Source: an uncultured Nitrospirales bacterium
GTDB lineage: Bacteria; UBA10199; JADGCS01
Direction of reading: 5' to 3'
Assembly (NCBI GenBank): GCA_964609965.1
Contig: CAZSTS010000011.1
Span: 5,099 to 69,098, forward strand
Length of the DNA: 64,000 bases
Made by a program: the position numbers and the translations under genes. The notes beneath the pieces were generated by a model. That model was given only the letters and a program-made list of their open reading frames with translations, searched no databases and was not told where the DNA came from. This document shows positions 1,797 through 34,409 of this stretch, in pieces; the stretch's first letter is position 1, and each line of letters starts with the position of its first letter.

Positions 1797-1823
1797 GAAA
1801 CTTTTTCCCAAAACTCTCGATAA
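1797..1823 (+). promoter_or_regulatory. Putative sigma28/FliA-WhiG-like promoter
   Basis: GAAACTTT-N11-CTCGATAA ending 76 nt upstream of ATG 1900; same architecture at 22670-22696 and 34383-34409. Confidence 0.55.
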
Positions 1824-1899
1824 AGAGCATGTAAGATTAATGTGATGGTGGGCACATATATAAAGCTTTTATTTCCCTATCATAAAAAAAGAGGCTTTT

Positions 1900-4146
1900 A
1901 TGTCTACAAAAACATACTATATTTCACGTTTAATTATGCTTATTATACTAGTTGTTTTCATCTTTTTGGGAACAACAGGTTGTGATAGCAATGAATCCAT
2001 AAAGTATGATGATGACGAAATTATAACTCCTGACATCATACCAGATCCACCTGCAGATGATGACGATGGTTCAACGACCACGATCACTGATACAGATGGT
2101 GATGGAATTTTGGATGAAAACGATAATTGTGTTTATTATATTAATGCTGATCAACTAGACACAGATGCTGATGGTGTAGGAGATGAATGTGATACCGATG
2201 ATGACGGTGACGGAGTCAAAGATGGCATAGATGCCTGTCCTACTGATCCTACTGAAACGACAGACACTGATGCTGATGGCATCTGTGATAACACTGATAA
2301 TTGTGTTGATCTTGAAAACGAAGACCAAGCAGACGACGACGGTGATGGCGTAGGAGATCTCTGTGACACATCTGATGATGATCCTGATGAAGATGGTCTG
2401 CCAAATTCAGAAGACAATTGTCCAGCTGATGCTAATGAAGACCAAGCAGACATTGACGAAGATGGTGCAGGTGATGCCTGTGACAATTGCCTTAATGATC
2501 CCAATGAAGACCAAGCTGATTTAGATGCTGATGATATTGGTGATATTTGTGACGAAGACATTGATGGCGACGGTGATCTGGCAATAGACTTTGGCGGAAC
2601 AGATTGTGATGATGAAAATGCTAACACTTATGTGGATGATGGCACAGGTGTGAGCGCTGCAGAAATTTTTGACCTTGCTGACAATGACTGTGACGCCCTT
2701 GTAGACGAAGACATAGATCTCGCTACACAAGGAAACTACATTGATGGTACCAGCGACTACGATAATTTTGGACTTAATATGGCTGGTGTTGGTGATGTGA
2801 ATGGCGATGGCTATGATGATATTTTAATCAGCTCACCTTGGAATGATAATGCTAAAGGAAAAATTTATCTCTTCCTTGGACATGAAGACTTTAGTGGAGA
2901 GCTCCTATCAGATAGCGCTGATGTTATTTTCACTGGTGAAAATGATGGCGACCTTGCTGGACTATCAGTTGCCGCTGCAGGAGACGTAAACAATGATGGG
3001 TATGATGATATTCTCATTGGAGCCCCTTTTAACGATGAAGGTGGAAGCGGTGCTGGAAAAGCATACCTCATATACGGCGCCAACTTTACCTCTGGTTCAC
3101 TTGTTAATTTAGCCTCTGCAGATATTTCTTTCACAGGGTCTAATACTAATGACGTTTTAGGTATTGCTGTTTCAACAGCTGGCGATGCTGATGAAGATAA
3201 AAAAGCCGACATCCTCATTTCTGCTCCAGGATTTGATTCTTCATTAACAGGAACTAATGTAGGTAAGATTTATCTCTTTTACGGCAAAAATCTTACAAGC
3301 ACATCTACGTTATCAGACGCTGATAAAAAATATATTGGTGAAAAACCTAATGATTACGCTGGAACAAAGCTTGCTACAGCCGGCGACTTTAACGGCGATG
3401 GTGCGGATGATTTTATTGTTGGAGCCCCTTTTAATGATGATAGTGGCATAGATGCTGGTAAAATCTATGTTGTTTTTGGTGAAGGAAAAGTAACCGCTAA
3501 TGAAGCTCAAGTAGGAAATTTTCAATCAAGAAATTTTCTCCCTCTCACTATCGTTCCAACAAACCTTGATACAGCTGATATATCTTATACAGGCCTTGCT
3601 GATTATAACTATATTGGCACGACTATTTCAGGAGGCGGTGTTGATGTAAATGGTGATGGCTTAGATGATTTTGCAGTAGGTGTGAGATATAACGATGAAG
3701 CAGGCCTCAATGCTGGTAAAACATATTTCATCTATGGCAGCGAAAGCCTTTCTGGATCTTACACACTCTATAATGCCAATACAGCCTACACCGGCGAACA
3801 TTCCAGTGATTACTCAGGAACATCAGTTGCCCTGATAAATGATTTGAATGACGATGGCTATGGAGAAGTCCTTATCGGTGCATCAGGATACGATGCTACA
3901 TACATAAACAGTGGTAAACTCTACCTTGTATTAGGCGAAGAAGACTCTTTAATACTAACAACATTTTCACTTGAAGATGCTGCAGCTACTTTTCTGGGCA
4001 GCAGCTCCACAGAAAGTGTTGGAGGAAAAGTTACTAATGCCGGCGATGTTAATGGAGATGGCAAAGAAGAAATCATTACGAGTGGCTACGGCTATGATGG
4101 ATCTGGCACTGCCGTGGGAAGAGCTTATATTATTTTCTTACAATAA
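1900..4146 (+). CDS. Surface lipoprotein with thrombospondin type-3 Ca-binding repeats, a putative metal-binding DCDD motif and an FG-GAP (integrin-alpha-like) beta-propeller
   Basis: Lipobox-like LGTTGC; repeated DxDxDGxxDxxDNC..NxDQxDxDxDGxGDxCD; DCDD...AAEIFDLADNDCD; several GDxNGDGxDD..GAP..G++Y repeats. Confidence 0.88.
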   Translation: MSTKTYYISRLIMLIILVVFIFLGTTGCDSNESIKYDDDEIITPDIIPDPPADDDDGSTTTITDTDGDGILDENDNCVYYINADQLDTDADGVGDECDTDDDGDGVKDGIDACPTDPTETTDTDADGICDNTDNCVDLENEDQADDDGDGVGDLCDTSDDDPDEDGLPNSEDNCPADANEDQADIDEDGAGDACDNCLNDPNEDQADLDADDIGDICDEDIDGDGDLAIDFGGTDCDDENANTYVDDGTGVSAAEIFDLADNDCDALVDEDIDLATQGNYIDGTSDYDNFGLNMAGVGDVNGDGYDDILISSPWNDNAKGKIYLFLGHEDFSGELLSDSADVIFTGENDGDLAGLSVAAAGDVNNDGYDDILIGAPFNDEGGSGAGKAYLIYGANFTSGSLVNLASADISFTGSNTNDVLGIAVSTAGDADEDKKADILISAPGFDSSLTGTNVGKIYLFYGKNLTSTSTLSDADKKYIGEKPNDYAGTKLATAGDFNGDGADDFIVGAPFNDDSGIDAGKIYVVFGEGKVTANEAQVGNFQSRNFLPLTIVPTNLDTADISYTGLADYNYIGTTISGGGVDVNGDGLDDFAVGVRYNDEAGLNAGKTYFIYGSESLSGSYTLYNANTAYTGEHSSDYSGTSVALINDLNDDGYGEVLIGASGYDATYINSGKLYLVLGEEDSLILTTFSLEDAAATFLGSSSTESVGGKVTNAGDVNGDGKEEIITSGYGYDGSGTAVGRAYIIFLQ

Positions 4147-4173
4147 TAGAGTTTTTACATTCTATTTCTTATT

Positions 4174-4201
4174 AAGGGCGCTCTCAAAGCGCCTTTTTTT
4201 T
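4174..4201 (+). terminator. Rho-independent terminator
   Basis: GGCGCT-ctcaa-AGCGCC followed by a T run after the adhesin gene. Confidence 0.7.
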
Positions 4202-4229
4202 GTGCCTGTGATCCCATGCACCTGTGAAC

Positions 4230-10704: not shown

Positions 10705-10863
10705 AAACTAATCTTTCAAGATTAATTTTGAAGTTGCAAAGCCAGCCTGACGCTCATGTGACTTGCAATAAAATGAATTTTCAATTGAAATGAAGAAGTG
10801 AAAACTACTACGAATTAGCGGCGTGCTGCCGCAACGAAAAGATTAATCTAGAAAGATTAGTTT
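10705..10863. mobile_element. MITE-like or long-hairpin element with ~25 bp terminal inverted repeats
   Basis: Left end AAACTAATCTTTCAAGATTAATTTT; reverse complement of right end AAACTAATCTTTCTAGATTAATCTT. No ORF inside and no clear target-site duplication. Confidence 0.55.
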
Positions 10864-13800
10864 CCGTAACCACAGGTAGAACTCCCATAAGGATCATTCC
10901 CATAATCAAACTTATTTGCATTATCATAGTAGTTCTTATAACGATCGCGATCAAAGTCGTTGATCATGAAATCAACACACGTCATGTATTTATAAACATC
11001 ATAATCAGGATTATCTAAATCCGCAAAACCAGGATCTTCTAAATTACTACAATCAGCCGCATCAACATAACCATTTGGCAACATGCCTAGATCTGTATAC
11101 ACATCAATAATAGGTGTACCATTTGGCATCACCCCATCATCACGATGAAAATCAAAGCACCCTTGGGTACTGCTTGCAATGCCTGGAATCAAACAACCAT
11201 GAAACGAAAAATAAAGTGGTTTTCCTTGTCCTGTGGCAGCATCAGCCTTGGCAAAGGATGGCGCTGTATTTCCTTTTCCATTAAAGACTCCAATACCAAC
11301 AAATAATAAGAGATTATTCTCATCAAAATTCACAGGCCAACCAGCAAACACAATTGATTTTGAATTAAAATCCTGATCCATAAACCGGTAATTACCTTTA
11401 CCATAACCACCATAATTGATTCCTGAATGCGCAAGTGAACTATAATCAATCAAATTACTAAACTCTTCATTCCACCCATCTTCGCGCCAAAACTTAGCAG
11501 TATCATATCTCTCACCATCCTTAAGATAAATCTGGTTTTTATCTAAGTGAGGTCTTGTTGTTACTGCAATACGCTGCTGCCAATCACCATTATACCATTC
11601 ATCTTCTGCCACTCTCTTTGTTGTAATGGTCACATTCATATCAGTGTATATAAGGTGACCAGGATGACTAAAAAAGATGGAGCGATCACCTGCACCTAAA
11701 ACAATAGCTTTAAAATGCGCATTATAGATTGTGATATCATACTTTGTTTCATGTGTTTCACCATCATCATCCACGTGGGGCTCATATGTGCCAAAGCCCT
11801 CCCAGGAATCATAGTCTGGATTTTCAGAATCAACATCATCTGGCACAACACCTTCATCTTCTAGGAGAAATACAAAATAAGAGCATTCATCCACAAACCC
11901 ATCTTGTCTCTTTGTATCTGACTTAGAGGCGATGGATTTGTAGCAATCTTTTACCTCATCAGGGTCATTGATAGTTTGAATTGTGCTAGGACCATAATTA
12001 TTTCCTGCACACTTTGTGTCATCCAAGAAAGTAATATACGATCCAAATTGAAAAGCCCCATAAACACCTTCATAAAAAGATTCGCTTTCATTGGGATCTT
12101 CTTCTGCTCGTTCAAACACATCTGAAACAGTTTCTACATCTGGTCGATACGCAAATGTGGCAATCCGTCCATAATACTCTACGTTGCAACTATCGAATTT
12201 TGTAAACTCATGATAGACAACCATCCACCTGGTCCCATCATCATCAATGTATTCTTCGCCTCCATTTGTTGGCATGCAAGCTGTATCAGAATCCAAAAGT
12301 CGTTCTTCACCTTCTGGTGTTGTGTATTCAATCGTCCCCACACCATCATCTGCGCATTCAATCCCTGTACCTGTGTGACTTCCTTTTTGAAATTCAAGGC
12401 GATAAGGATCTGTAGGCAAGGGTGAGCAGCCTTTAATATTAGTAGCCTGATGCAAGTATGAACGAATAGACGTAAGGTAATTAAGGTTATCTTTATCAAA
12501 CTGTAACTCAATGGGTTCTGCCAAGCGAGCCGTCCCTTGTTCGCGGTTTAGTTCGAGCGCTAGATGAAATCTAAATGGAGGAGGGTTATGGGCTGACTCA
12601 ATCAGGTCTGTCATAACCATGGTAATACGATCCATCACAAACGTTACACGTTGCGTGCCATCATCACCCAAAACACCTGTGTTGCATAAATTACTCTCAC
12701 CTGATTCCGAAGACATGGCCTGAAAGGGAACTGTGAATGTTCTTGGAGTCATACCTGTAAGCAGGGACGCATAGGCACTCTCTTTTTCGGGAAAGGTCGT
12801 TTCAACTACAAGCTCCCCAGCAAGCATCTGTCCAATTGAAGCCACGGAACCGTAGAACTCAACAGTAAAGCTTTGTGAAGAATCAGGCTCAATGCTAAAA
12901 GAATCACTTGATGGAGTCACTGTAAGAGACGCATCACTAGTGACAGACCAATTCACATTCATTGTATCTTCTTTATTATTATTATAAACCTTAAAAGTAG
13001 CTGAGGTAGGCGTTGAGGAATCTGTTGAAAACACGCAAAGGTTTTGATTACGGCCTTCGGCATATTCTCTTTCTAACTTTGTACCTCCATACAAAAGCTC
13101 AACAGCATAGCCTGAATCCTGTTCGCCAACTAAAGAAACCTTTCCTTGTGGGCCATTGCCACCTGTGTGTTGGAAATAGAACTGTCCAAAATCAAAACTC
13201 GCTTCAAAATCTCCATTGAGTTCTGCTGATGTAGAGGGCAAATACTGAATTGAAAAAGTTGCTTCTGCACCAGCCACGAGCTCTAAAGGAAAACTTAATT
13301 CTGTCTCTTCCCAAGTATACTCAAAAAAACCATTAATAGAACCGCCATAGAATTCTAATGTTTTTGATCCTGTCCCTGCATTTATAATCTTAATCTGAGC
13401 TGTTGAAGAATTTGTTGAAACCCAATCAAGGAAAATATCAACAGAACCATAATAGATTGCAGCACCATCAGATGTAAGATCAACTGATCGCCAGGCTTCC
13501 TCATCTGAAAAACGATAAGCCATTTCCAAAATCGGCTCTACACCACTGGTAGCAGCCACAAGAGGCAGGCGAATTATCCCGAGAGAGGTGTGAAGATTGA
13601 CTACAGCATTCATAGCTAAAGAATTGTATAGATATCCGTCATCAGCCTCAATATCCAGTGTTGGGCTGAACTCCATATCGAGTCTTAATATTTTTCCAGC
13701 TTCTAGGAGGATGTTTTGTACTTCTTGACCTGTGTGATACACGCTCACACTGTATCCACCAGCAGGATTATCAACAGGACCTGTGTAATCAATAAATGTA

Positions 13801-14633
13801 GGCTCTGAAAAAGTACTTGTGTTGTTTGGTTCCAGACCAAATGAGAAACTGCTATCTATTTCATCAGAGACCTGCCAAATAAAATCTTCGAATGAATTGT
13901 TGTCCATGGCTGCTGACAAAAGAACATCATCATTGTTATCAATGCTCACAGAGGTAATCTTAATATCTTCTCCGCCAGTGTTACAAATTTTAATTCCCTC
14001 TGTTCTTGTTTGTCCATACGCAACTTTATAAAAGTCTAGATAATCAACTTCGGGAGCATCATCATCTGAGCAAAAATAACCTGTTGGAATAATTTTAAAA
14101 TCACTAGGACCAGTGACAGAAGCCCTCAGAGGAAGACGAATATAGCCATCGATGTCTGCTGTTATGGAAACATAGCTTGTTTGTGTGCCAAAAACCCACG
14201 CATTGAACTGAACATAGAAAGTTTTCGTCTCACCATGACCAACTTCGATTTCACTATACCCACCGATATTTTGTTCGTTTTCGTCTAGGATCGAAAAACC
14301 AGTTGAAACAGAATATATTGTAAATTTAAAATACCGAGTTTCTCCTGAATTGTTTGAGATAGTAAAGGCCTCTTTGATTTCATCATCTTGTGAAATCTCT
14401 CCATTGAGATCATTAAAATCAATGTATTCAGGATCTGTTGTGATGCTTACACCATTATCTACAAACGTATTAACCACCATATCAGCAAGACTTGTGTCAG
14501 CCGAAGGAGTAAAATCTGGGGAAATATCGAAATCTGCTTCGACGTCAGCTGAATCCCCACCACAGGCAGTCGCTGCTAGAATTAAAAAAAGAACTAATAG
14601 ATGAGGAATGTGTTTTTTAAGCAATGTTTTCAT
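10857..14633 (-). CDS. Large acidic lipoprotein with several Ig-like (ASH/choice-of-anchor-D-like) domains and a Cys-rich C-terminal domain
   Basis: Lipobox AATAC; recurring I.N.G..(L/I) and F.P strand motifs; Asp/Glu-rich. The domain call is inference. Confidence 0.75.
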   Translation of the reverse strand: MKTLLKKHIPHLLVLFLILAATACGGDSADVEADFDISPDFTPSADTSLADMVVNTFVDNGVSITTDPEYIDFNDLNGEISQDDEIKEAFTISNNSGETRYFKFTIYSVSTGFSILDENEQNIGGYSEIEVGHGETKTFYVQFNAWVFGTQTSYVSITADIDGYIRLPLRASVTGPSDFKIIPTGYFCSDDDAPEVDYLDFYKVAYGQTRTEGIKICNTGGEDIKITSVSIDNNDDVLLSAAMDNNSFEDFIWQVSDEIDSSFSFGLEPNNTSTFSEPTFIDYTGPVDNPAGGYSVSVYHTGQEVQNILLEAGKILRLDMEFSPTLDIEADDGYLYNSLAMNAVVNLHTSLGIIRLPLVAATSGVEPILEMAYRFSDEEAWRSVDLTSDGAAIYYGSVDIFLDWVSTNSSTAQIKIINAGTGSKTLEFYGGSINGFFEYTWEETELSFPLELVAGAEATFSIQYLPSTSAELNGDFEASFDFGQFYFQHTGGNGPQGKVSLVGEQDSGYAVELLYGGTKLEREYAEGRNQNLCVFSTDSSTPTSATFKVYNNNKEDTMNVNWSVTSDASLTVTPSSDSFSIEPDSSQSFTVEFYGSVASIGQMLAGELVVETTFPEKESAYASLLTGMTPRTFTVPFQAMSSESGESNLCNTGVLGDDGTQRVTFVMDRITMVMTDLIESAHNPPPFRFHLALELNREQGTARLAEPIELQFDKDNLNYLTSIRSYLHQATNIKGCSPLPTDPYRLEFQKGSHTGTGIECADDGVGTIEYTTPEGEERLLDSDTACMPTNGGEEYIDDDGTRWMVVYHEFTKFDSCNVEYYGRIATFAYRPDVETVSDVFERAEEDPNESESFYEGVYGAFQFGSYITFLDDTKCAGNNYGPSTIQTINDPDEVKDCYKSIASKSDTKRQDGFVDECSYFVFLLEDEGVVPDDVDSENPDYDSWEGFGTYEPHVDDDGETHETKYDITIYNAHFKAIVLGAGDRSIFFSHPGHLIYTDMNVTITTKRVAEDEWYNGDWQQRIAVTTRPHLDKNQIYLKDGERYDTAKFWREDGWNEEFSNLIDYSSLAHSGINYGGYGKGNYRFMDQDFNSKSIVFAGWPVNFDENNLLLFVGIGVFNGKGNTAPSFAKADAATGQGKPLYFSFHGCLIPGIASSTQGCFDFHRDDGVMPNGTPIIDVYTDLGMLPNGYVDAADCSNLEDPGFADLDNPDYDVYKYMTCVDFMINDFDRDRYKNYYDNANKFDYGNDPYGSSTCGYGN

Positions 14634-14700
14634 TTTTGTTTTATGTCTTATGTTTTATGATTTGAAATGGCATTAAACATAAAACATTTAACGTAGTACG
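14634..14700. repeat. Direct then inverted heptamer array (hairpin-forming) between lipoprotein genes
   Basis: TTTTATG TCTTATG TTTTATG ... CATTAAA CATAAAA CATTTAA. Confidence 0.65.
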
Positions 14701-14707
14701 TTATACA

Positions 14708-15955
14708 TTAATAAATCTCCTGTGTAATCTCCCCTTCCAAATGAAGAAAATAATAGGCTTCGTTATCAACTAGGGCCTGATAGGCCTCGTTAGACATTTT
14801 TGTATCATCTTCTCCTGCAAATGTAGCAATGCCAACCAAGGTGATTGTACCATGCCTGATATCTTTACCTATTAAACGATCATCAATAATATTAAACATG
14901 GGCACACCAAAATCATCTGATACATCTGGAATTTCTTCAATATAAGGATGTGACACTTCGCCTGTTGTTAATATTTCTAAATTTAAAAAAGCATTAAAAA
15001 GCCCATCAGAATCCTGTATGAGTGAATTTGAATTGTTGATATATGAAGAAATACTAAACAATAAATTATTAATTTCAAGTCGACCCGGCGTCTCTACACG
15101 ATCTATTGTTCCATAGGCCTCGTTAGGAGCACCAAGAATCAAATCAGCACCAAGAAAAAACGTGTCTGTAATGGCGGTTGGCACATCAAAGCGCGTACAT
15201 TCATCAAAACTGAGTAAAGTTACCGTTCCGTCTTCGTCTATTTTTAAAATAAGATAAACAGGGCTATACCATTCATCTTCTGGAATGATATCAAGATCAA
15301 TATGAGTGCTAATATCAAAAGAATAACTAGCAAAAGCTCCTGTATTCTTAAGATAGGCATTCAGCTGAGTTACTTTTAAATAATAATACTCTCCTTCTGG
15401 CAAGGCAGGCAATGTGCGTTCCGTAGGATTATCGTATTCATCATAGTAAACTCTTTCATTGGAATCACAAAGCAAGGCATCTGGGGCATTGTCATTCACA
15501 GTCGTCACGAGAGAAACTGTATTGGAGAGACTCTCTTCTAATGTGAGATAATAAATAATAAATATCGTCGTGTATTCTGTGACTGAACATGAGGTAGGGC
15601 TAAACTGAAGATTAACGTTGATAGAAGCCCCTGGAACCACGCTAATAGAGACGGCATCTCCTGTTTGATAAAGCATGTTTCCTGCTTCATCTAATATATT
15701 ATAAACTGAATAAGCCCCACAATCATTGTCCGCAAATGCCATGTTATAAATTTCATAGTTTTCTTCTTCTGAATTATTAGTAAATGTAATTGTTCTGTAT
15801 GACGTTGTATTCAAATCACCACTTATCTGCATCTCAGTTGGAGAAGCAGAAATGCTCTGATCACCTTCAGAGTTAACAGAAGGACCGTAAAGAGAGGAGC
15901 AGTTTATCATGAACAGTGTTATGAGGATTGTTATGAATAGTTTCTTATTATTCAT
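14708..15955 (-). CDS. Acidic lipoprotein with one Ig-like domain and a C-terminal domain resembling that of the 1258-aa neighbour
   Basis: Lipobox FMINC; ITFTNNS...FSPT Ig-like motifs; LTTGEV/ITTKRV and LVGIATFAG/FVGIGVFNG similarities to the neighbour. Confidence 0.75.
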   Translation of the reverse strand: MNNKKLFITILITLFMINCSSLYGPSVNSEGDQSISASPTEMQISGDLNTTSYRTITFTNNSEEENYEIYNMAFADNDCGAYSVYNILDEAGNMLYQTGDAVSISVVPGASINVNLQFSPTSCSVTEYTTIFIIYYLTLEESLSNTVSLVTTVNDNAPDALLCDSNERVYYDEYDNPTERTLPALPEGEYYYLKVTQLNAYLKNTGAFASYSFDISTHIDLDIIPEDEWYSPVYLILKIDEDGTVTLLSFDECTRFDVPTAITDTFFLGADLILGAPNEAYGTIDRVETPGRLEINNLLFSISSYINNSNSLIQDSDGLFNAFLNLEILTTGEVSHPYIEEIPDVSDDFGVPMFNIIDDRLIGKDIRHGTITLVGIATFAGEDDTKMSNEAYQALVDNEAYYFLHLEGEITQEIY

Positions 15956-15962
15956 TTTAATT

Positions 15963-16000
15963 TCTGATAGCTGTCAGCAGTCAGCTGTCAGCCGTCAGCT
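15963..16000. repeat. Heptamer array (GCTGTCA-like)
   Basis: GCTGTCA GCAGTCA GCTGTCA GCCGTCA GC. Confidence 0.75.
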
Positions 16001-16002
16001 TA

Positions 16003-19000
16003 TTATTTAACCCAACTCTCCAACTCAATAATGATATCCGAAGATACATGAATGTACCCTTCATCATTATCAAATTCTATTGTTGGGTTTAGAATCACAT
16101 CCTTTATTCCAAAATCACAGAGAGCGTCACGAATAGGATCTTCTTCTCTTTCTAAATTTCCATCATCATCTCTTACATAAGGCGTGGGATACAGCATCGT
16201 ACAGGGATCCATAGGAAAATACTCAGTGCTCGCTACCAAAGTCATTTGTGGTGCTTCATTTTCATCATCCGCAACACCCTCTTCTTCCTCTTCCTCAGCT
16301 TGGCTTTGTCCATAATTGATAATATCTGGATTAAGAACAGGCTCTATCGTCATAGATTCTGGAGTAAAGCCCATGGGGGACTCCCCAGCATAATAAGGAA
16401 TATCATCACCACAAGAAGCATTCTCTGCTGCATCTACCTTTAATTCAAATTCAAACTCATCAAGTGTAGCAGCGCTTATATTGCCAGCAGCATAGTTTTC
16501 ACTCCCTTTAATTTTAATCACAATAGTAGGATTGGCCAGACTTGGATCAATAATAGGATCTCCATCATCGTTTTCTTCGATGTCTTCGTAAATGTCTTTG
16601 CCCATCTTATCGAACAAGGCTTTGACAACACCGTCTAACACATCTGTCACAACATTCACGTCATCATAAGTCGCCCCACCTTTGCCCGAAGGAACGCTGG
16701 CATGAATGTTCTGTTCTGCATAACCAGGTATATAGAGATGAATTTCGCCAGACTCTTTGTGATAAACAACCCTGAGCTTGATCGTCCCGTCTAATCTAAG
16801 ACGAACGACTTCTGATTGATACTTTGGATCTGTATAAATATTGGAAACAGTTTCTCCGTTTTCTGTGTGAGACTTAAGTTCTTTAATACCAAGCTGAAGG
16901 TCTGTTACACCTATTTGGATTTCGGAAGCATTATCTAAACCATCAACAGGATTAAGTGATAATGTAACAGGATAACCTGGGTCTAAAATCAAATCTACGT
17001 GTAAGGAAGATTCATTAAACTGAGATTGAATTGTGGCAAACAAGAGCGATGGGGGAAGGTCAGAAGGAATGAGACCTGCAATATCACAAATATCAAAGCG
17101 CCCTAAAACGACCTTATCAATCCCTACACTCCAGTTATTATTTTTTTCGATATCTTCTATTTCAAAGGTTTCTAGAAGAGACATTGGACCTTTTCTGAAA
17201 ATAAGATAAGCTGCAGCATTCACGATCTCTTCAATATTGAGAGATACCCCTAAAAAGGCCTCTCCTGCAGGATTACCTGAAGTGAGAGGGTATTCAATTA
17301 AACCTTCATTGCTAGAACCACGCCTTAAATGGCCGTTTCTATGGGCATGAGTGTATGAAACTTGCTGTACGGATTCAGCTTCATCCAGCCCTAGATGGAA
17401 TGTCTCTCTAAAACTTGCAAATGTGAAAACAGGAACCCCATCAACACCAACGCTTAGAGGAAGTCTTAATGTGATACCCCCATCAAAGACATTGAGATCA
17501 GCGTTTTCAACATTTGCACCAAAGTTAAATTCTTCCCAGTCAAAATCAGTTGAAAAAGCATTGCCTTCCCAAACCCATGCTGGATAATCATATTGAGACG
17601 AAATCATGGGATTGACCATCTCTTTATCCATGCAAGCAATCATCTTTTGAAAGGTCTCCATAACCCCTTGCCAGATAATTCCCAAGAAAGAAGCGTTTGT
17701 ACCATTGATGGTGAGATCACTGTAAATTGCCTGACCTTGAACTGAGTTTCGATCGAGAACTACTGGAAAAGTTTTTGCTGTTTCCTCACTACAACCAAAA
17801 GGAACAAAATACCCTGGATGTTTGGACTGAAAATAAGCTTTACAATTTTGAAAAGGCTCAATCTGAATTGATTTTTCTTCCATCTCTGAACTATCAAAAA
17901 GTGATGAGAGATTATTATTTGTGATTATTTCTTGTCCGTAAATTTTGATTTTACTGCCATCAAGAATAACTTTATTTGTCCACGTCCCGTTAATCTCTTC
18001 TTTTGTGACACGAATCACGTCTTTGAGTTTAAGTCTGATTTTTCCTACAGACCAAATAAGAGGGATTGTATCATCATTAATGGAGTACTCAAATCCTAAC
18101 ATCTCTTGCTGACCTAATAGACCTTTTTCAACAAGATTGTAGGCAATGAGGCTTCCCCAAAAAGCAGGCACAGAGGCAGATGAGACATCAGCGTCACAGC
18201 CCTTTTCAAGGTATTCATCTTCAAGATCTGGGTCATCTGGAACTAAACAAACATCAGCATCTACATAACCCTTTTCATTATAGCTATCTTCTTTTTCTTT
18301 CAGGTCTAAGCTTTGAACAATCCACTTTCCAGAAACATAGTCATTGAAATCATAAGAATCCGCATAAAGAGGCCAGTCATCGTTATCTGTATAAGTCTCA
18401 GGATCCTTTCCAAAGGCCTCAAAAAGATATTGTTTGTCCCCCACAGGCACAAAGGCTGTTGTGATCACACCGGTGCTGTTTTCTGTGCCCGCACAGGCAT
18501 CGAGAGCCACGTTGAATTCTTCTTGAGGATCACCTTCTCTTTCAAAATAACAATGCTCAGGATCTTGAGAACAATCGCCACTCGTGTTTTCTTTGAGCCA
18601 TTGACGATAGCGCCACAAAGCCCAATACTTTGTAATCATGATATTGCTATGAAGGCCTTGATGAATAAATTTTTCTTGCCACTCAGGAGAGAGGTCCTCG
18701 AAAGCATCATAGCGCTCACCACCATTATCTTCCATGTATTGTCTTTGAAAATCTGCTTCGAGATCAATATTATCATTGTCGTCTTTGGTCCAATTCATCC
18801 AACCATTGGCAACATCACCAAAACTAATGTTCTCATTAAGATAGTGTTCAACGACCTTAAGAATATTTCTGCCTTGTACTGAGTCACGGCTAATCACACC
18901 TTCTGAGAGATTGAGCATCACAGGGGCCCGATCAACACAAGCATCGTCTGTTAACGCACAGGAACCCGCTACCAAACCAAGCTGGCCTGCTGTAAGCGTT

Positions 19001-20913
19001 GCTGATCGTATAAGAGATTCACCTGGCGTAAAAGTTCTTGAATGTGGGCTTTCTTCTCCCATTTGGAAAGTCGTTACCTCGATTGTACGATGGCCTTTTG
19101 TGCTTTCACCCTGAAGCTGCAAAGCGTTTGTGTATAAATTGAGATGAGCGTGGTGGTCTTCTGAGGGTACTTGCAACGTAAAATCAAAACTTGCTTCAGG
19201 CACATCACAAACAATGCGATCAGTTGACGTCTCTGTGCCATCATCGTTTTCAATGGTTGTGGTTTGCGTATAGCAGTTTCCATGAAATGCGCTCTCACCT
19301 TCCATATAGGCCTCAGCGGCCTCTTCAGTAACAGTAGAATAACTGTCTGTATATTCTGGATAGATATATATAGGATAGTTGTCATCGCTGGTGGAAACAT
19401 TAAGCCACATCTTAATACTCGAAGCAGGACAATCTGGATCGTCTTCTTTATCAGGCTGACAATAACTTCCTGTTTCACCACTCTTTGGCGCAGGAACACT
19501 AGCTACATAATCCGCATCAATGGGCGCAAAATATTTTACTGTACCAGAAACCTTGATAGTTGTTTTTCCTGGTGCAAAAAGTTCATTTTCCCTTGGCTGA
19601 GTAATCGTTATAATGGGTTTATCATTATCAATGATAAGAGTCATCTCTGCACTAGTTTCACCAAGAACATTGCTAGCCTTAGCCGAAATAGTATTAATAC
19701 CATCTTGAAGTTCAGTGATGTGACTTAGAGAAATACACAACGTATTTGTATCATCAAAACCCTTGCCATCATCGTATTCAAGCTCAGAGTTTGTGCACCA
19801 TGACCACCCTTCTTCATACCAAATCTCAGTATCAGGGTGAAGCTCTTCGCCATTGAATTGAATATCGTACAAAGTCACTGGCATCTCTGCTTCACTAGAA
19901 CCAGAGGCATAAAGATTAGGCACGCGAATACCTACAGTAAGATAAGAAACATCTGTAGGTGCCGAGGTATCAACCTCGTTTTCTGATGAATCACGAACCT
20001 CAATCTCAAGGCTCGGAACATTTGCCACAACAACGTTTACTGTCTTTGTGAGCGTGAGATCTTTGTTTGTGTTAATGGTCAAAGAGATCGCATACACACC
20101 TTCAACTTGAGGCACGCCAACTTGCTTTGAAAAGTATCCATTAGAATCAAACGTGGTTTTGTATTTTACTCCTGCTGAATTAATATAGATATTACTTGAA
20201 AGACCCTCTTCAAAAATCGATTGCAGTTCTAAATTAACTGAGCCAGTCACTGTTACAAGGTAATCACCTTCGGCATCATCAACACCTTCATGATGGCCTG
20301 TCCGACTATCTATAATCAGGCCTTCTGTTGGTGCTGTAATTGTAAACAACGTTGCTAAAGTTTGACCTTGGACTTTGATGATGTAGGCATAGGCTGACGA
20401 AGAACTTCCAGAATTGAGAAGAATTTTGACCTGCCCTGTGTGAGACCCAATGGCTGTTCGCATGTAACAAATCGTGATGTCACCAGAACCCATAACGCGT
20501 TCATCTGAATAATCACCATTCGCATTATAAATCTGAAATTCATACTCTCCATCCACTTCACTTGTATTGTCTTTATCAATTTCTGCTTCATATGTGACAC
20601 TGCTCGGAAGTCCAATGGAGAGACATTCGATAGAATCCACATCACTTAGACCGTAATCGATAAGTTGATTAGAGAGCATGATAGAAGAAATATCTGTGCT
20701 ATCAATACAGTTACCTTCCTCATCTTTTTCGCAAATATTTGTAGACCCATCAGCTCCAGGATAATACGCCCCGCCATCACCAATGTTTATGGAGCTGTCT
20801 GCCGTTTCATCAAGATAAATATCTGGATTATCAGAGGAACAATTTACCAATGCGATGATACAAAAAAGAAAAACTATGTTGAGGATAAATATTTTTGTTA
20901 GCTTACTTTTCAT
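16003..20913 (-). CDS. Giant (1636 aa) acidic lipoprotein with N-terminal bacterial Ig-like domains
   Basis: Lipobox ALVNC; ITAP/ITQP...V.G.V and G.NTI.A.A.N.LG Big-type motifs; many Cys pairs; poly-Glu stretch near the C-terminus. Confidence 0.78.
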   Translation of the reverse strand: MKSKLTKIFILNIVFLFCIIALVNCSSDNPDIYLDETADSSINIGDGGAYYPGADGSTNICEKDEEGNCIDSTDISSIMLSNQLIDYGLSDVDSIECLSIGLPSSVTYEAEIDKDNTSEVDGEYEFQIYNANGDYSDERVMGSGDITICYMRTAIGSHTGQVKILLNSGSSSSAYAYIIKVQGQTLATLFTITAPTEGLIIDSRTGHHEGVDDAEGDYLVTVTGSVNLELQSIFEEGLSSNIYINSAGVKYKTTFDSNGYFSKQVGVPQVEGVYAISLTINTNKDLTLTKTVNVVVANVPSLEIEVRDSSENEVDTSAPTDVSYLTVGIRVPNLYASGSSEAEMPVTLYDIQFNGEELHPDTEIWYEEGWSWCTNSELEYDDGKGFDDTNTLCISLSHITELQDGINTISAKASNVLGETSAEMTLIIDNDKPIITITQPRENELFAPGKTTIKVSGTVKYFAPIDADYVASVPAPKSGETGSYCQPDKEDDPDCPASSIKMWLNVSTSDDNYPIYIYPEYTDSYSTVTEEAAEAYMEGESAFHGNCYTQTTTIENDDGTETSTDRIVCDVPEASFDFTLQVPSEDHHAHLNLYTNALQLQGESTKGHRTIEVTTFQMGEESPHSRTFTPGESLIRSATLTAGQLGLVAGSCALTDDACVDRAPVMLNLSEGVISRDSVQGRNILKVVEHYLNENISFGDVANGWMNWTKDDNDNIDLEADFQRQYMEDNGGERYDAFEDLSPEWQEKFIHQGLHSNIMITKYWALWRYRQWLKENTSGDCSQDPEHCYFEREGDPQEEFNVALDACAGTENSTGVITTAFVPVGDKQYLFEAFGKDPETYTDNDDWPLYADSYDFNDYVSGKWIVQSLDLKEKEDSYNEKGYVDADVCLVPDDPDLEDEYLEKGCDADVSSASVPAFWGSLIAYNLVEKGLLGQQEMLGFEYSINDDTIPLIWSVGKIRLKLKDVIRVTKEEINGTWTNKVILDGSKIKIYGQEIITNNNLSSLFDSSEMEEKSIQIEPFQNCKAYFQSKHPGYFVPFGCSEETAKTFPVVLDRNSVQGQAIYSDLTINGTNASFLGIIWQGVMETFQKMIACMDKEMVNPMISSQYDYPAWVWEGNAFSTDFDWEEFNFGANVENADLNVFDGGITLRLPLSVGVDGVPVFTFASFRETFHLGLDEAESVQQVSYTHAHRNGHLRRGSSNEGLIEYPLTSGNPAGEAFLGVSLNIEEIVNAAAYLIFRKGPMSLLETFEIEDIEKNNNWSVGIDKVVLGRFDICDIAGLIPSDLPPSLLFATIQSQFNESSLHVDLILDPGYPVTLSLNPVDGLDNASEIQIGVTDLQLGIKELKSHTENGETVSNIYTDPKYQSEVVRLRLDGTIKLRVVYHKESGEIHLYIPGYAEQNIHASVPSGKGGATYDDVNVVTDVLDGVVKALFDKMGKDIYEDIEENDDGDPIIDPSLANPTIVIKIKGSENYAAGNISAATLDEFEFELKVDAAENASCGDDIPYYAGESPMGFTPESMTIEPVLNPDIINYGQSQAEEEEEEGVADDENEAPQMTLVASTEYFPMDPCTMLYPTPYVRDDDGNLEREEDPIRDALCDFGIKDVILNPTIEFDNDEGYIHVSSDIIIELESWVK

Positions 20914-20919
20914 TATTCA

Positions 20920-22644
20920 TTACCATCGTCCACTAACTCCAACGCCTACACCAAGCCCCTGTGGGCCAGGCTCAATCCCTGGCATTCCAGTTTGCAGACC
21001 AGGCATATCAGGACCAAAACTAGGAATTCCACTTGCCGCTCTTGGCATTCCAAGCTCAAGATTTAGATCTGAAATCTTCCATCGATTTGGACCTCCTGTT
21101 GCTCTAGGATCAAAATTTTCATTAATACCATCAAGTATTCTTCCCACTTTTGTGTTGCTTATCAACGCCCCCAAAAGAGCTCCTAAAAGATACGCGCCCC
21201 AGTTAAGAGCGTAATCACCCCAGACTTCATCGCTCATCTCTGAAGCCACTGCTGTACTTACCGTGTTAGCTGTCCAACCCACAACAGGAGCGGCCACAAG
21301 ACCAACTCTTTCTGCAGTGTCTAAGGACTCCCAATCTTTTATTTGATCAATAAGCCAATAACCACCTCTCATGGCCGGGATAATGTTTACTACAGGCAGC
21401 AAACCGCTGAACATGCCCGCTACTTCAGAATTTCCATCATCAAGATTTACAGAATCTAATAAACCCATGGCTAGAGGAGCAAAAATACCCACACTGAAGA
21501 AAGCGTTGTGAGCTGTATAAAAAGCAATCATCTCTGGATCATTTGTAGAAATAGCCTCTAGTGCTCCCAAACCAAAACCCCCAACTGACATTGCTATATT
21601 TTCTCCTGTGAGCGGACTTCCTTCACCACGAGGATTAGGGTTAACATTAGCTGCAGCCGCCATACCAAATTGAGCTGGAATCATGAGAGCTCCAACAGCA
21701 AGACCTAACCAAGGCTTACCATCGATCTCAAAGGCCTGAACACCTACGAGGTTTCCATTAATCATAGCAGCAAAAGACCAAGCCTGACCTTCTAATTCAA
21801 AAGCAGTGATAGCCCTTGATAGTTCTGATGTTCCTGGTGTGAGTCTTTCTGCAAGATCTTTTTCTGCTTCACCTTCTTCTTCATCGCAAATGCCTAGATC
21901 TTCACAATCAGAATCACCCTCTGTATCTTCTGCTCTTTCTTGAAGCTCTTCACACACCTCTGGATCAACCCCTTCTTCACAAGGGATCACGTTATTCATG
22001 TTATTTGATGTGACTTGCATAGAAGCAGGCAAGGCTGAAAGGCCTGCAAAGGCTAAAGCACCATCTGTAAAACGAATAATCAGCACACCAGGATCACTGC
22101 CATCGTACGTAAGCACAGGATTAGTTGAAACACCCCTTACAATAGAAGCATAACCTAAAGGTCCGGTATATTTCCCCGCAAGATCTGTTGTGAGCTCTCC
22201 CATTTCCATGGCGTAAATTGCTGGGGGATTAAGTGTGCGCATAATCAAACTCAAATCAGCATGACCATACAAGAGTGATTCAGAAACACTCATACCAACA
22301 AGCTCGCCAGGAGTTTCAGCCCATTGACGCGCTAGGTTTGTTGGTACAACATCAAAAGGAATTTTAAAAACTGGCCGATTCATGCCATCATCATCAAGCT
22401 CATATTCTCTAGCATCGACTGAAATCGCGTAGACAAGAATACCAGCATCAGCTGCAACAGAAAAACCAATACCCAGTTTTTCAAAAACAGTAGCAACTTC
22501 TTCTTTAGTTGGGCCTGTGTTTGTGCCAGAAGTCGGGGATGTAGAAGATGCGCGTCGTTCCAAAGCCACATCTAATGAAGTCAACTCAGATGGAGATCTT
22601 TCTGAAACTGGTGCCTGACCGGTTGTTGGGATTAAATCGCTCAT
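20920..22644 (-). CDS. Orphan protein with an S/T/P-rich N-terminus and several Gly-rich hydrophobic segments; no signal peptide
   Basis: Long ORF 6 nt upstream of the giant lipoprotein gene. Start moved to ATG 22644 because the track's TTG start overlaps the promoter element. Confidence 0.75.
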   Translation of the reverse strand: MSDLIPTTGQAPVSERSPSELTSLDVALERRASSTSPTSGTNTGPTKEEVATVFEKLGIGFSVAADAGILVYAISVDAREYELDDDGMNRPVFKIPFDVVPTNLARQWAETPGELVGMSVSESLLYGHADLSLIMRTLNPPAIYAMEMGELTTDLAGKYTGPLGYASIVRGVSTNPVLTYDGSDPGVLIIRFTDGALAFAGLSALPASMQVTSNNMNNVIPCEEGVDPEVCEELQERAEDTEGDSDCEDLGICDEEEGEAEKDLAERLTPGTSELSRAITAFELEGQAWSFAAMINGNLVGVQAFEIDGKPWLGLAVGALMIPAQFGMAAAANVNPNPRGEGSPLTGENIAMSVGGFGLGALEAISTNDPEMIAFYTAHNAFFSVGIFAPLAMGLLDSVNLDDGNSEVAGMFSGLLPVVNIIPAMRGGYWLIDQIKDWESLDTAERVGLVAAPVVGWTANTVSTAVASEMSDEVWGDYALNWGAYLLGALLGALISNTKVGRILDGINENFDPRATGGPNRWKISDLNLELGMPRAASGIPSFGPDMPGLQTGMPGIEPGPQGLGVGVGVSGRW

Positions 22645-22669: not shown

Positions 22670-22696
22670 TTATCGGGCAAAGCCCTAATAAGTTGC
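22670..22696 (-). promoter_or_regulatory. Putative sigma28/FliA-WhiG-like promoter of the lipoprotein operon
   Basis: Minus strand GCAACTTA-N11-CCCGATAA, ending 25 nt upstream of ATG 22644. Confidence 0.65.
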
Positions 22697-23715: not shown

Positions 23716-23718
23716 ATT

Positions 23719-24338: not shown

Positions 24339-24397
24339 ATCTAGCATCCAGCATCCTGTAGCCCGAGAACCTGGGAACCAGAGAACCCGAGACCCCA
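24339..24397. repeat. 7/8-nt tandem array before the nuclease start codon
   Basis: ATCTAGC ATCCAGC ATCCTGT; GAGAACCT GGGAACCA GAGAACCC GAGACCCC. Confidence 0.7.
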
Positions 24398-24444
24398 TAA
24401 CATATTTGCCTTTCCCCTCCTAAACAGATATCAACAATCCATCA

Positions 24445-25077: not shown

Positions 25078-25084
25078 TTTTGGG

Positions 25085-25216
25085 CTAAAAGATTTCATTT
25101 CTCATGCAGAAATCAAGAAAAGTACGATCTTTTGAAAAGATAAGCTTAAGAGCAGCTTTTACACCAAAAGCCTTTAAGACCTGCCAGAAGTTTTGTTTTT
25201 TTATTAAGCCACTCAT
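25085..25216 (-). CDS. Small 43-aa protein (below the ORF-track cutoff)
   Basis: MSGLIKKQNFWQVLKAFGVKAALKLIFSKDRTFLDFCMRNEIF*; amphipathic; immediately downstream of a sigma54 site. Confidence 0.55.
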   Translation of the reverse strand: MSGLIKKQNFWQVLKAFGVKAALKLIFSKDRTFLDFCMRNEIF

Positions 25217-25228
25217 GCCTCTCTAATA

Positions 25229-25244
25229 TGCATAAGCCGTGCCA
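25229..25244 (-). promoter_or_regulatory. Sigma54 (-24/-12) promoter
   Basis: Minus strand TGGCACGGCTTATGCA; IHF-like TAACAACTTGAAAT at 25260-25273 just upstream. Confidence 0.7.
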
Positions 25245-25446
25245 AGCCTGAAAACTTTATAACAACTTGAAATTACTCGATATTTTTAGAAAATAAGCCC
25301 CCTAAACAGAGCACGACTGGGGTATTTTGGAGACATTTAGGGGAAAATACTGGGGGGCGTGTCACTAGCATTATAGCAAGAAATGTTAATGATTTTTTGG
25401 GGTTGCGTCTATTTGTTAAGGCATGTTTGCTATTGTCCTGCCTTGT

Positions 25447-25494
25447 TATAGGTCTTATAGGTCCTATAAGACTTATAGGACCTATATTAGGACC
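25447..25494. repeat. Quasi-palindromic 9-mer array supplying the valS stop codon
   Basis: TATAGGTCT TATAGGTCC TATAAGACT TATAGGACC TATATTAGG; the valS TAA is at 25487-25489. Confidence 0.8.
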
Positions 25495-32844: not shown

Positions 32845-32856
32845 GTGGAAACCAGA

Positions 32857-33261
32857 TCAAACTTTTTTGACATCACCAATAATCATTGCCAAAAACATCC
32901 CAGCAATAATTGCTTTTACAACAGCTCCTAAAAACCAAACAAAAGCCATTGTAAACGTAATGGGCATCACAGCATAAGAGCCAAAACCCATGAACATACC
33001 TGTGGCAAGACCAAAGAGAAGACCGTATTGCAAGGCTGTGCTTTTGTTTTTAAACTCAAAAAAGTTGTCGAAAATGAGAACAAAGACTAAGGCGCCAACC
33101 ATGGTCACAGCATAGGTAAGGCCCATATTCATTTCTAAGAGAGGTCTCCAAAGCTGAGATGTGAGTTGGTAGTCATCATAAAGAAGTAGTCCATGGATAA
33201 CAAAATCAAGAACCACCCAAGTAACAAAAATACATAAAACAGACATGGCTTGTTTTTTCAT
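32857..33261 (-). CDS. Small four-helix membrane protein
   Basis: Four hydrophobic segments; GGAG ribosome-binding site upstream. Confidence 0.75.
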   Translation of the reverse strand: MKKQAMSVLCIFVTWVVLDFVIHGLLLYDDYQLTSQLWRPLLEMNMGLTYAVTMVGALVFVLIFDNFFEFKNKSTALQYGLLFGLATGMFMGFGSYAVMPITFTMAFVWFLGAVVKAIIAGMFLAMIIGDVKKV

Positions 33262-33334
33262 ACGGTTCTCCTTAGATGAAGCGGAGTTTAAGATAAGTTA
33301 CGAGAATTGCCAAGGATTTTTTTGGAATGGTTCA

Positions 33335-34345
33335 TTATTCAGATGTACAATAACGATCAAATTGCTTTTGCGCACCCTGATGAGAAGAACATTGCTCAAG
33401 TGCCTCTTGAAAATCTTCACAAGCACCCTCTTGATCTTTAATGTTCAAATTATAAAAACCTTGGATATACGAAAACTGTGCTGATTCATAACCTTGAGAA
33501 GAAACTTGGTCGATTAATTCACCAGCAGGACCAAGATCCTCATTGCCCATGTAAACACCAGCAGCATTCAACATTGGAATTGGTCGACAAGAACATATTT
33601 CTGAAGACTGCGTATATTCGTCTAACGCAAGCGAGTAATCTCCTTCAAGATCAGCCTTCACACCTCGACCATTATGAATAACAGATAAGAATTCAGCGTC
33701 TGACAAAGCATACCATTCTCTGTGGTCGATACCAAAGCCTTCTTCAAAACTAGCATCCACTAAAATCGTTTCACCATCATCACCTTGAATACCCAGGCAA
33801 TAGTGATTCATGTTTCCATCTATTGTCTCATGCACATAAACAGGAAAACTCTCGATTTCAAAATACTGAAATAAGGCGTACAATAAATTAGTTACATCAA
33901 CACAATTTCCAACTGGTGTTTCTAAAATATCCGCACAGCTTAGTCCTGATGGTGTGTAATTAAAAGTCCAATCTAGAGATGTTACAGCATGATAAATAAC
34001 CCAAGCCTTTTCAAGCTGTGATGCCTGAGCTGGCAAGCCTCCCATTTCCCATTCTATTAAACCTACAAAATTTGAAGCTTCTGATGAGAAATCTTCTAAG
34101 GCTGCAGCCAAATCCCAAGGCAAGATATTTTCAAATAACGACTCTGGCAAATCCTTACATTCTTGAGCACTTTGCCATAATGGCTGTGGACAAGCGACAA
34201 GACCTCCTTCTTGCCGTTCTTGAACCAAGGTGTAAGCAGCACTTCCAGTGATTTTCGTTTGCGTTTTGCCTGGATAAGATCCTTGATCAACCGGATCAAG
34301 GCGTTGAATTATTGTAGATACTATTGTGTCTAAACCAAGTGCCAT
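33335..34345 (-). CDS. Transglutaminase-like (Cys-His-Asp) protein with C-terminal TPRs; no signal peptide
   Basis: GNC...LLYAL, HYCLGI, LVD; TPR-like helices in the last ~110 aa. Confidence 0.75.
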   Translation of the reverse strand: MALGLDTIVSTIIQRLDPVDQGSYPGKTQTKITGSAAYTLVQERQEGGLVACPQPLWQSAQECKDLPESLFENILPWDLAAALEDFSSEASNFVGLIEWEMGGLPAQASQLEKAWVIYHAVTSLDWTFNYTPSGLSCADILETPVGNCVDVTNLLYALFQYFEIESFPVYVHETIDGNMNHYCLGIQGDDGETILVDASFEEGFGIDHREWYALSDAEFLSVIHNGRGVKADLEGDYSLALDEYTQSSEICSCRPIPMLNAAGVYMGNEDLGPAGELIDQVSSQGYESAQFSYIQGFYNLNIKDQEGACEDFQEALEQCSSHQGAQKQFDRYCTSE

Positions 34346-34382
34346 AAAATATTAGTATTGTTCATTTTGTGATTGGTTCTTT

Positions 34383-34409
34383 ATATCGAAGGATTGATTG
34401 AAAAGTTGC
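34383..34409 (-). promoter_or_regulatory. Putative sigma28/FliA-WhiG-like promoter
   Basis: Minus strand GCAACTTT-N11-TTCGATAT, ending 37 nt upstream of ATG 34345. Confidence 0.6.

Follow-up and report, generated by a model that had tools for sequence, protein, structure and literature searches.

Three sites in the 64-kb stretch analysed here (the window), from the genome of an uncultured marine UBA10199 bacterium, combine the geometry and −10 box of promoters read by the flagellar sigma factor FliA (sigma-28) with a different −35 box. They are probably promoters of one large alternative-sigma regulon that is read by a dedicated paralogue of the FliA/WhiG family, a reading that draws on direct observations of the motif, its spacing dependence, orientation and conservation, the gene content of the regulon, the inventory of sigma factors and their gene neighbourhoods. 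The genome, assembled as 2.82 Mb in 47 contigs (39.7% G+C, 98.4% complete), carries about 170–200 such promoters.

Three sites in the window share one promoter architecture

The sites, which we call P1, P2 and P3, each consist of two 8-nucleotide (nt) boxes separated by 11 nt.

1797..1823, + strand: P1, −35 box GAAACTTT (1797-1804), 11-nt spacer, −10 box CTCGATAA (1816-1823)
22670..22696, − strand: P2, −35 box GCAACTTA (22696-22689), 11-nt spacer, −10 box CCCGATAA (22677-22670)
34383..34409, − strand: P3, −35 box GCAACTTT (34409-34402), 11-nt spacer, −10 box TTCGATAT (34390-34383)

The initial annotation had described this 8-11-8 geometry at 1797 (+), 22696 (−) and 34409 (−), correctly oriented 25–76 nt before accessory genes. 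The letters are exactly as it claimed; the ATG follows the −10 box after 76 nt at P1, 25 nt at P2 and 37 nt at P3, and all three sites face the downstream gene. The pattern GMAACTTW-N11-YYCGATAW matches three times in the window against a mean of 0.01 in 100 dinucleotide-preserving shuffles, and none of the shuffled windows (0/100) reached three matches. Scored with a position weight matrix, P1, P2 and P3 reach 21.0, 24.5 and 21.3, respectively, and are the sole window sites at 21 or above; three weaker matches (14.3, 15.2 and 18.8) sit deep within genes. A simple scan of the intergenic region around P2 (22500-23200) returned no sigma-70-like promoter. The predicted transcription starts lie near 1831 for P1, at a T-G step formed by the 8th and 9th bases after CGATA, near 22662 for P2, which would give a leader of about 18 nt, and near 34374-34375 for P3.

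The motif recurs across the genome with fixed spacing and orientation

Genome-wide, the consensus is (A/C)(G/A)CAAC(T/A)TT-N11/12-(C)CGATAA, with ~190 true sites. On both strands together, AACTT-N14-CGATA occurs 57 times and the N15 form 15 times, against 2–10 occurrences at each of 16 other spacings (6–13 and 16–23). A first, seeded matrix at a score of at least 14 found 122 sites with an 11-nt spacer (N11) and 41 with a 12-nt spacer (N12), against 9–21 at control spacers. Of these 163 sites, 132 are intergenic, at a median of 51 nt from the open reading frame (ORF); 126 of the 132 face the start of the next gene, five face an end and one is without a neighbour, so that both the enrichment and the orientation bias upstream of genes that the initial annotation's reading entails are present. 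When the matrix was iterated, the −35 box relaxed to (A/C)(G/A)CAAC(T/A)TT, and at a score of at least 16 there were 152 N11 sites, with the sigma-28 spacer between 8-mers, and 66 N12 sites, against 7–17 at 12 control spacers. Although crude ORF calls span 90% of the genome, 171 of these 218 sites are intergenic. The iterated set contains 175 promoter-like sites fronting 171 different genes and, with co-directional followers at gaps of up to 60 nt, the regulon amounts to 219 of 2,439 ORFs.

The −10 element is that of sigma-28. Across 328 sites the matrix columns read C 313, G 319, A 326, T 266, A 297 and A 222, with a weak G/C preference before them, as in the sigma-28 −10 box GCCGATAA. In a set of 186 promoter-like sites, position 8 after CGATA is T 99 times, and position 9 is a purine 147 times and C only six times. 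This T-purine step is the pyrimidine–purine signature of a start site and lies as far from the −10 box as sigma-28 would require; the −10 box of Pseudomonas aeruginosa fliC is numbered −15 to −8 in the available text of PMC12784957.

The −35 element is not. With CGATA fixed, the canonical AAGTT is found six times at the canonical distance and 0–10 times at other distances, and is therefore not enriched, whereas GCAAC has 61 occurrences where the median is 3.5, and CAACA has 43 compared with 8. The motif thus lacks the canonical sigma-28 −35 box TAAAGTTT, and the variant −35 box described in the initial annotation is real. Searches with GCAAC, ACAAC, GAAAC or AACTT fixed uncovered no second −10 class, and only CGATA-type −10 boxes stand out with GCAAC or AACTT. 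On these counts, the promoter type is one of sigma-28 geometry with −10 (C)CGATAA, an 11-nt (sometimes 12-nt) spacer, and −35 (G/A)CAAC(T/A)TT replacing TAAAGTTT.

Other occurrences of the motif or its −10 core deserve mention. An N12 site scoring 19.9 (G000:C26:34041-34069, − strand; contig and position in this genome, G000) lies 266 nt before an rpoD-like gene and inside the preceding co-directional gene, and may be an internal promoter feeding the housekeeping sigma factor. Tandem arrays of about four 7-nt NCGATAR units (e.g., ACGATAGGCGATAAACGATAATCGATAG) occur in ~30 places in the genome, such as C6:68764, C2:142160 and C4:184323, and explain an excess of CGATA-N9-CGATA (58 vs 3); one array lies ~1.2 kb upstream of the 282-amino-acid (aa) sigma gene described below. 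A dispersed repeat of ~60 nt, ACGTAACC...AACCGCTAAACGATACGGGC.TCGTAACC, is present in at least 16 copies (e.g., C1:30252, C1:100244 and C3:239943), flanked by GTTACG-type inverted motifs.

The promoter type is conserved throughout the phylum

We compared 93 genomes of the phylum from 24 families, 63 of them of high quality, and examined the 21 nearest separately. In each of the 21 nearest genomes AACTT-N14-CGATA is commoner than its reversed control, and CAACTT-N14-CGATA gives 6–93 matches per genome in 93 of 93 phylum genomes, against 0–3 for the reversed control. Orthologues of the three window genes occur only within the genus, at 29–52% protein identity. In the two same-genus genomes, all five orthologues with upstream DNA keep a site scoring 21.1–26.4 at the right place, with the boxes kept and the flanks diverged. 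Those of P1 keep ACGAAACTTTT...CGATAA or CCGAAAA; the P2 orthologue promoters score 23.3 and 26.4; and the P3 site scores 21.1 in one genome, the other's contig ending before the upstream region.

Related metagenome-assembled genome records carry their submitters' labels Deltaproteobacteria or UBA10199. We rejected these labels as a sign of a wider taxonomic range, as four of five records match at the same contig numbers and coordinates as phylum genomes and the fifth is a 1.9-kb contig.

A FliA/WhiG-family paralogue with an altered recognition helix

The sigma inventory of the genome comprises RpoD-like and RpoH-like factors, one extracytoplasmic function (ECF) sigma factor with two further ECF-like matches, and two FliA/WhiG-like proteins of 282 and 217 aa. 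The latter two, and the export cluster to which the longer belongs, are located as follows.

G000:C6:69964-70812, outside the window: FliA/WhiG-like sigma factor, 282 aa
G000:C2:113664-114317: shorter FliA-like paralogue, 217 aa, helix LSKSWASRLH, divergent or short region 3
G000:C6:69964-80176, outside the window: type III export cluster, with the 282-aa sigma as first gene

The 282-aa protein supplies the group-3 sigma factor foreseen in the initial annotation. It has group-3 architecture, with Pfam regions 2 and 4 both found, and its best family is FliA_WhiG (TIGR02479) at 132.2 bits, below the curated cut-off of 189.6 and ahead of SigB/F/G at 75 bits, in an alignment that spans profile positions 1–219 of 224. 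Against the NCBIfam sigma-28 model PRK05911 it scores 100 bits (cut-off 378). Its closest PDB chains are FliA (9wsm at 4e-24, 6pmi and 1rp3; P. aeruginosa and E. coli), and the WhiG structure 7LQ4 is also among the solved relatives that it matches.

Region 4.2 is altered, which is where the initial annotation had looked for the changed −35 specificity. The helix reads LSKSWTSRLH in place of SESRVSQLH in canonical FliA, and 51 of 52 related loci encode LSKSW(T/V)SRLH; the canonical S-E-S-R-V-S-Q-L-H is absent from the 282-aa protein. According to the available text of PMC12784957, S224 and Q228 make base-specific −35 contacts in the P. aeruginosa sigma-28 open complex and alanine substitutions impair function; the E. 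coli FliA structure, as far as its preprint text is available, shows only backbone contacts at −35 (bioRxiv 10.1101/2020.01.02.893370). Aligned to this numbering, with a chain offset of 5 inferred from residue letters, the 282-aa sigma keeps S224, has Arg for Q228 and has Trp for the Arg adjoining S224.

An orthologue of the 282-aa sigma is present in 91 of 93 phylum genomes and 63 of 63 high-quality ones, at 50–83% identity. It is missing from two genomes, of 78% and 73% completeness, in which the motif is still present. A search of 1.84 billion representative proteins gave 83 clusters at E ≤ 1e-30. An S-W-x-(S/C/A/T)-R core is shared by 119 of the 150 best-matching clusters and the canonical SRVSQ occurs in one, with 28 unmatched by the pattern; by this proportion, the KSW-SR sigmas are a large, distinct subfamily.

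The sigma gene heads a type III export cluster

Following the sigma gene, the cluster contains a YscI-like ORF, FliG-like, FliH/SctL, the FliI/SctN ATPase, a YscO/FliJ-like protein, an ORF of unknown family, FliM-like, FliN, FliO, FliP, FliQ and FliR. The order sigma, YscI-like, FliG-like, FliH, FliI is kept in 43–45 of 52 loci, most others being cut by contig ends, and the gene upstream of the sigma is conserved in only three. The ORF of ~165 aa directly after the sigma is conserved in 49 of 52 loci; 12 of its 43 members weakly resemble the inner-rod protein YscI/HrpB/PscI, with a best E of 3e-5 that falls short of the cut-off, and one matches FliE. Elsewhere in the genome are two solitary FHIPEP genes (C22:22074 and C8:10082) and an SctJ/FliF-family gene in a 312-aa frame (C5:1923). 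The genome thus has the core export apparatus without filament, hook or rod, an injectisome-like set, in a search that covered the components named above, flagellin and the rod/hook domain. As judged from gene content, the sigma heads a flagellum-like export apparatus in a cell without flagellar filament, hook or rod genes.

No flagellin or rod/hook C-terminal domain gene was found in this genome, in keeping with the non-flagellar programme proposed in the initial annotation. Flagellin occurs in 11 of the 93 phylum genomes, and exactly those 11 carry an extra FliA-like gene, 25–31% identical to the universal sigma and on the same contig as flagellin in eight. In nine of these 11 genomes the additional gene encodes the canonical helix (T/S)E(S/A)R(I/V)(S/C)Q(I/V)(H/R); in the other two the helix was not extracted. 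Because flagellated members of the phylum carry both genes, the universal sigma is a paralogue of flagellar FliA and not its orthologue. It would have a promoter grammar of its own, and it coexists with canonical FliA in flagellated members: upstream of the flagellin genes of these relatives there is no GCAAC...CGATA site. By eye, about eight of the 11 flagellin upstream regions, from loci of 10 flagellated relatives, instead contain T(A/C)AAG(T/G)T(T/C)-N12/13-CCGT(T/C)(A/C/T), with a canonical −35 and an unusual −10, which we offer as a lead only. AAGTTT-N12/13-CCGT has no genome-wide excess in five flagellated genomes (30 vs 47, 23 vs 24, 18 vs 39, 12 vs 20 and 15 vs 28); the pattern is too short to reveal one.

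The regulon is rich in genes without known relatives

We searched Pfam at E ≤ 1e-5 with 169 of the 171 genes next to a promoter, leaving out two that lie on small contigs. A family was found for 54 of the 169, compared with 92 of 120 random non-regulon genes from the same loci (Fisher p=5e-14), leaving 115 of 169 and 28 of 120, respectively, with none. The recurrent families are MopE-type metal-binding repeats, FG-GAP, multihaem cytochromes, FGE-sulfatase and DUF4423, together with the cell-wall enzymes M23, SLT, DPBB and YkuD, Ser/Thr kinases, CarD and the RNA polymerase alpha C-terminal domain (two). There are no flagellar genes among the 54 annotated genes, and the set does not resemble a flagellar class 3 regulon.

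The initial annotation had described these as accessory surface or effector-like genes. They are accessory, being overwhelmingly non-housekeeping; a surface location fails for the majority. By a crude rule, N-termini resembling signal peptides or transmembrane segments are depleted, with 38 among the 171 promoter-proximal genes and 704 among the 2,089 others (p=0.002), and we therefore rejected surface or secreted proteins as the common theme. Lipoboxes, in eight of 171 against 85 of 2,089, do not differ significantly, by a rule that missed the FG-GAP lipoprotein behind P1.

DUF4423 (PF14394) was considered as a conserved core of the regulon. It has 18 paralogues in this genome, seven of them behind regulon promoters, 12–13 in the two same-genus genomes and none in 14 control genomes. 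As a conserved core it is a weak candidate, since a site scoring at least 16 lies upstream in four of 26 assessable genes of relatives (four of 30 loci were without upstream DNA).

Two groups of genes drew our attention in passing. Two paralogues of ~260 aa (C1:305849-306643 and C1:307695-308456), each behind a regulon promoter, have an RNA polymerase alpha C-terminal domain as their only recognisable part. Very large multihaem MtrC-like cytochrome genes (930, 1322 and 1091 aa) are clustered at G000:C5:46561-73234, several of them behind regulon promoters.

Weighing the assignment against its alternatives

In the mechanism that we propose, the 282-aa FliA/WhiG-family sigma would read the variant promoters, the Gln-to-Arg and Arg-to-Trp changes in its helix would cause the new −35 preference, and transcription would start 9 nt after CGATA. 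Several observations weigh against it, to which the sub-cut-off FliA_WhiG score and some points under the alternatives below must be added. The matrix was seeded on fixed cores, which makes only the non-seed excess and the N12 class independent; gene calls are longest ORFs and crude, as is the signal-peptide rule. Membership of the regulon is poorly conserved at the family level, as DUF4423 shows. No site scoring at least 14 was found close to the two FliA-like genes, the ECF gene or the RpoH-like gene; autoregulation was rejected on this ground, and the sigma gene itself is preceded by no motif copy. A search for a FlgM-like anti-sigma factor (PF04316, E ≤ 0.1) in this genome gave no match, FlgM being short and divergent, and no candidate for such a factor emerged. 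Finally, no RNA runs matched window positions 20001-30000; the eight runs that did are DNA-type marine or seawater metagenomes from two studies.

The alternative that fares best, and which we regard as improbable, is that the 217-aa paralogue reads some or all of the promoters in the genus, instead of or together with the 282-aa sigma. It shares the recognition helix and occurs in each of the three genus genomes, and many proteins of 215–255 aa with a KSW-SR helix are among the best 150 representative clusters; on the present data either sigma could read the three window sites. The distribution argues otherwise, as the motif is enriched in 93 of 93 genomes and the paralogue type is seen only in the three genus genomes and G010. 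Furthermore, a second −10 class is absent with GCAAC or AACTT fixed.

Somewhat less probable again is that an ECF (group 4) sigma factor reads the motif, as GCAAC-N16-CGATA shares the geometry of AAC...CGT-type ECF promoters. The −35 core (G/A)CAAC resembles ECF boxes such as GGAACTT of E. coli sigma-E and AAC-N16/17-CGT of Bacillus subtilis sigma-W/X/M, and the genome has an ECF gene with an adjoining putative anti-sigma factor besides the two ECF-like matches. ECF sigma factors usually autoregulate, and no copy of the motif precedes the ECF gene. In addition, five of the 21 nearest genomes (G013, G015, G016, G018 and G020; 92–99% complete) have no ECF-type match at E ≤ 1e-5 and yet keep the motif excess (70 vs 5, 56 vs 5, 24 vs 5, 23 vs 8 and 16 vs 4), so a cognate, autoregulated ECF factor does not accompany the motif wherever it occurs. 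The extended −10 box CCGATAA is, moreover, a sigma-28 signature. Because the sigma is a three-domain group-3 protein and the −10 is a sigma-28 box, the promoters are better read as a hybrid grammar than as an ECF system.

We give very little weight to the possibility that the boxes are no promoter at all, being either a bipartite transcription-factor operator or part of a dispersed repeat. Other dispersed elements with CGATA are indeed present in the genome, namely the heptamer arrays and the ~60-nt repeat. The strict 11/12-nt spacing, the orientation of 126 of 132 sites, the median distance of 51 nt and the T-purine step at the expected +1 are properties of promoters, and the motif is not a repeat because its spacers and flanks are not conserved. 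Least credible is that these are flagellar class 3 (FliA) promoters left from a lost flagellum: they have the −10 box and spacing of FliA promoters and some relatives are flagellated, but a 98.4% complete genome has no flagellin, rod/hook or FlgM match, there is no enrichment of the canonical −35, flagellated relatives have a canonical FliA as a distinct gene and flagellin genes without the motif, and ~190 conserved sites, with the motif in 93 of 93 genomes, are not relics.

Reading by the 282-aa sigma therefore remains our preferred explanation, and it invites a bolder extension that we hold only tentatively and think unlikely to be right in full. In this extension, the whole phylum, uncultured and mostly non-flagellate, has a second, orthogonal sigma-28 circuit built on a FliA paralogue with an ECF-like −35 preference that is encoded by the first gene of a flagellum-derived type III machine; the machine would release or activate this sigma, in the way that exporting FlgM does for FliA. 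The sigma would then switch on ~200 fast-evolving genes, most of them lacking signal peptides or known relatives and many serving as substrates of the machine, as a contact, attack or host-interaction programme. The coupling of sigma activity to the secretion machine, in the manner of FliA and FlgM, and the secretion of part of the regulon by the type III machine are both speculative steps, and a host- or prey-contact stage for the regulon, as the initial annotation suggested, is conjecture. If such a circuit exists, it would point to predation or host association as the way of life of the lineage, and the two sigma-28 systems of flagellated members would be insulated by their promoters, GCAAC...CCGATAA versus TAAAGTTT...CCGT(T/C)A.

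Genes behind the three window promoters

The genes that P1, P2 and P3 face are the following.

1900..4146, + strand: gene behind P1, 748-aa lipoprotein with FG-GAP and thrombospondin type 3 repeats
10857..22644, − strand: four-gene unit behind P2, in order 20920-22644 (574 aa), 16003-20913 (1636 aa), 14708-15955 (415 aa) and 10857-14633 (1258 aa)
33335..34345, − strand: gene behind P3, 336 aa, no signal peptide
32857-33261, − strand: 134-aa membrane protein, 73 nt beyond the P3 gene

The labels of the initial annotation stand in part. Its integrin-like lipoprotein behind P1 is a repeat lipoprotein, with Pfam matches to FG-GAP (1.8e-32) and TSP_3 (8.3e-13) and an N-terminus ending ...FLGTTGC. 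Its lipoprotein operon behind P2 holds for genes 2–4, which have lipoboxes, and fails for the first (574 aa), which has no signal peptide. The four co-directional ORFs are separated by gaps of 6, 47 and 74 nt, the matrix scan found no further motif match inside the unit, and we infer that they form one operon. Three of the four have no Pfam family above the curated cut-off, and the 1258-aa gene has two weak sub-threshold matches. For the gene behind P3, described as a transglutaminase-TPR (tetratricopeptide repeat) protein, the transglutaminase part found no support. No Pfam family matches it at E ≤ 1e-3; its ten best matches by language-model features in the ESM Atlas are all TPR clusters (scores 0.93–0.94), and a TPR-like fold is, by these features, a lead only.

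Upstream of P2, a block CGCCATAAA (within ...C.CGCCATAAA...; window 22710-22718, − strand) lies ~13 nt from the −35 box. It is kept alongside the promoter in both same-genus orthologous regions, where the surrounding sequence diverges, and could be an activator or UP-like site.

Comparison with known systems

The promoter type gives a simple sequence rule that picks ~7–9% of the genes of each member of this little-studied phylum as one co-regulated programme, and with it a functional handle on hundreds of genes without known relatives. It would also present a natural case in which a sigma-28-family factor still reads the −10 as before and a few residues in one helix have altered how it reads the −35. 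The canonical paralogue in the same phylum serves as an internal control, so that rules of −35 recognition and promoter insulation are testable by a few base or residue swaps. The physical linkage of the sigma gene to a flagellum-like secretion cluster, in cells that lack flagella, is relevant in turn to the evolutionary re-use of type III systems and of the checkpoints that govern them.

Among described systems, the attack-phase regulon of Bdellovibrio bacteriovorus HD100 comes closest; in it, according to the available text of Karunker et al. 2013 (PMC3627812), the FliA motif TTAAG-N16-CCGATA occurs in 92 of 140 mapped promoters, mostly of non-flagellar genes that include surface proteins, proteases and many unknowns. 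Both systems pair a sigma-28-type promoter with a large, mostly non-flagellar programme, and they share the CCGATA −10 and the spacing. Bdellovibrio, as described there, is flagellated and uses a canonical −35, TTAAG, and a single flagellar FliA; here the −35 is GCAAC, a separate paralogue has a changed helix, there is no flagellum and the sigma heads a secretion cluster. The FliA–FlgM systems of E. coli, Salmonella and P. aeruginosa (6PMI, 9WSM), on the parts of their descriptions available, share the sigma family, the −10 GCCGATAA, the 11-nt spacer and the link to type III export, and differ in the −35, in the residues equivalent to Q228 (Arg here) and the neighbouring Arg (Trp here), in FlgM, for which no match was found here, and in their flagellar regulon.

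Developmental, non-flagellar programmes are also run by chlamydial sigma-28 (late genes such as hctB) and by Streptomyces WhiG (sporulation), and in chlamydiae, too, sigma-28 and type III secretion genes occur together in cells that lack a flagellum. Both factors use near-canonical sigma-28 promoters and small regulons, and no report known to us describes either with a GCAAC −35 or as the first gene of a secretion cluster. ECF sigma factors are the remaining comparison: the (G/A)CAACTT core and the Ser-Arg pair in the recognition helix resemble the ECF way of reading an AAC box. We found no description of this sigma or promoter in the open-access papers that our searches covered, and the UBA10199 papers among those listed do not, by their titles and abstract openings, treat transcription. 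What is new here is the GCAAC −35, the matching change in the recognition helix, the coexistence with a canonical FliA of which the sigma is a paralogue, the place of the sigma as first gene of a type III cluster, and the spread through the whole phylum.

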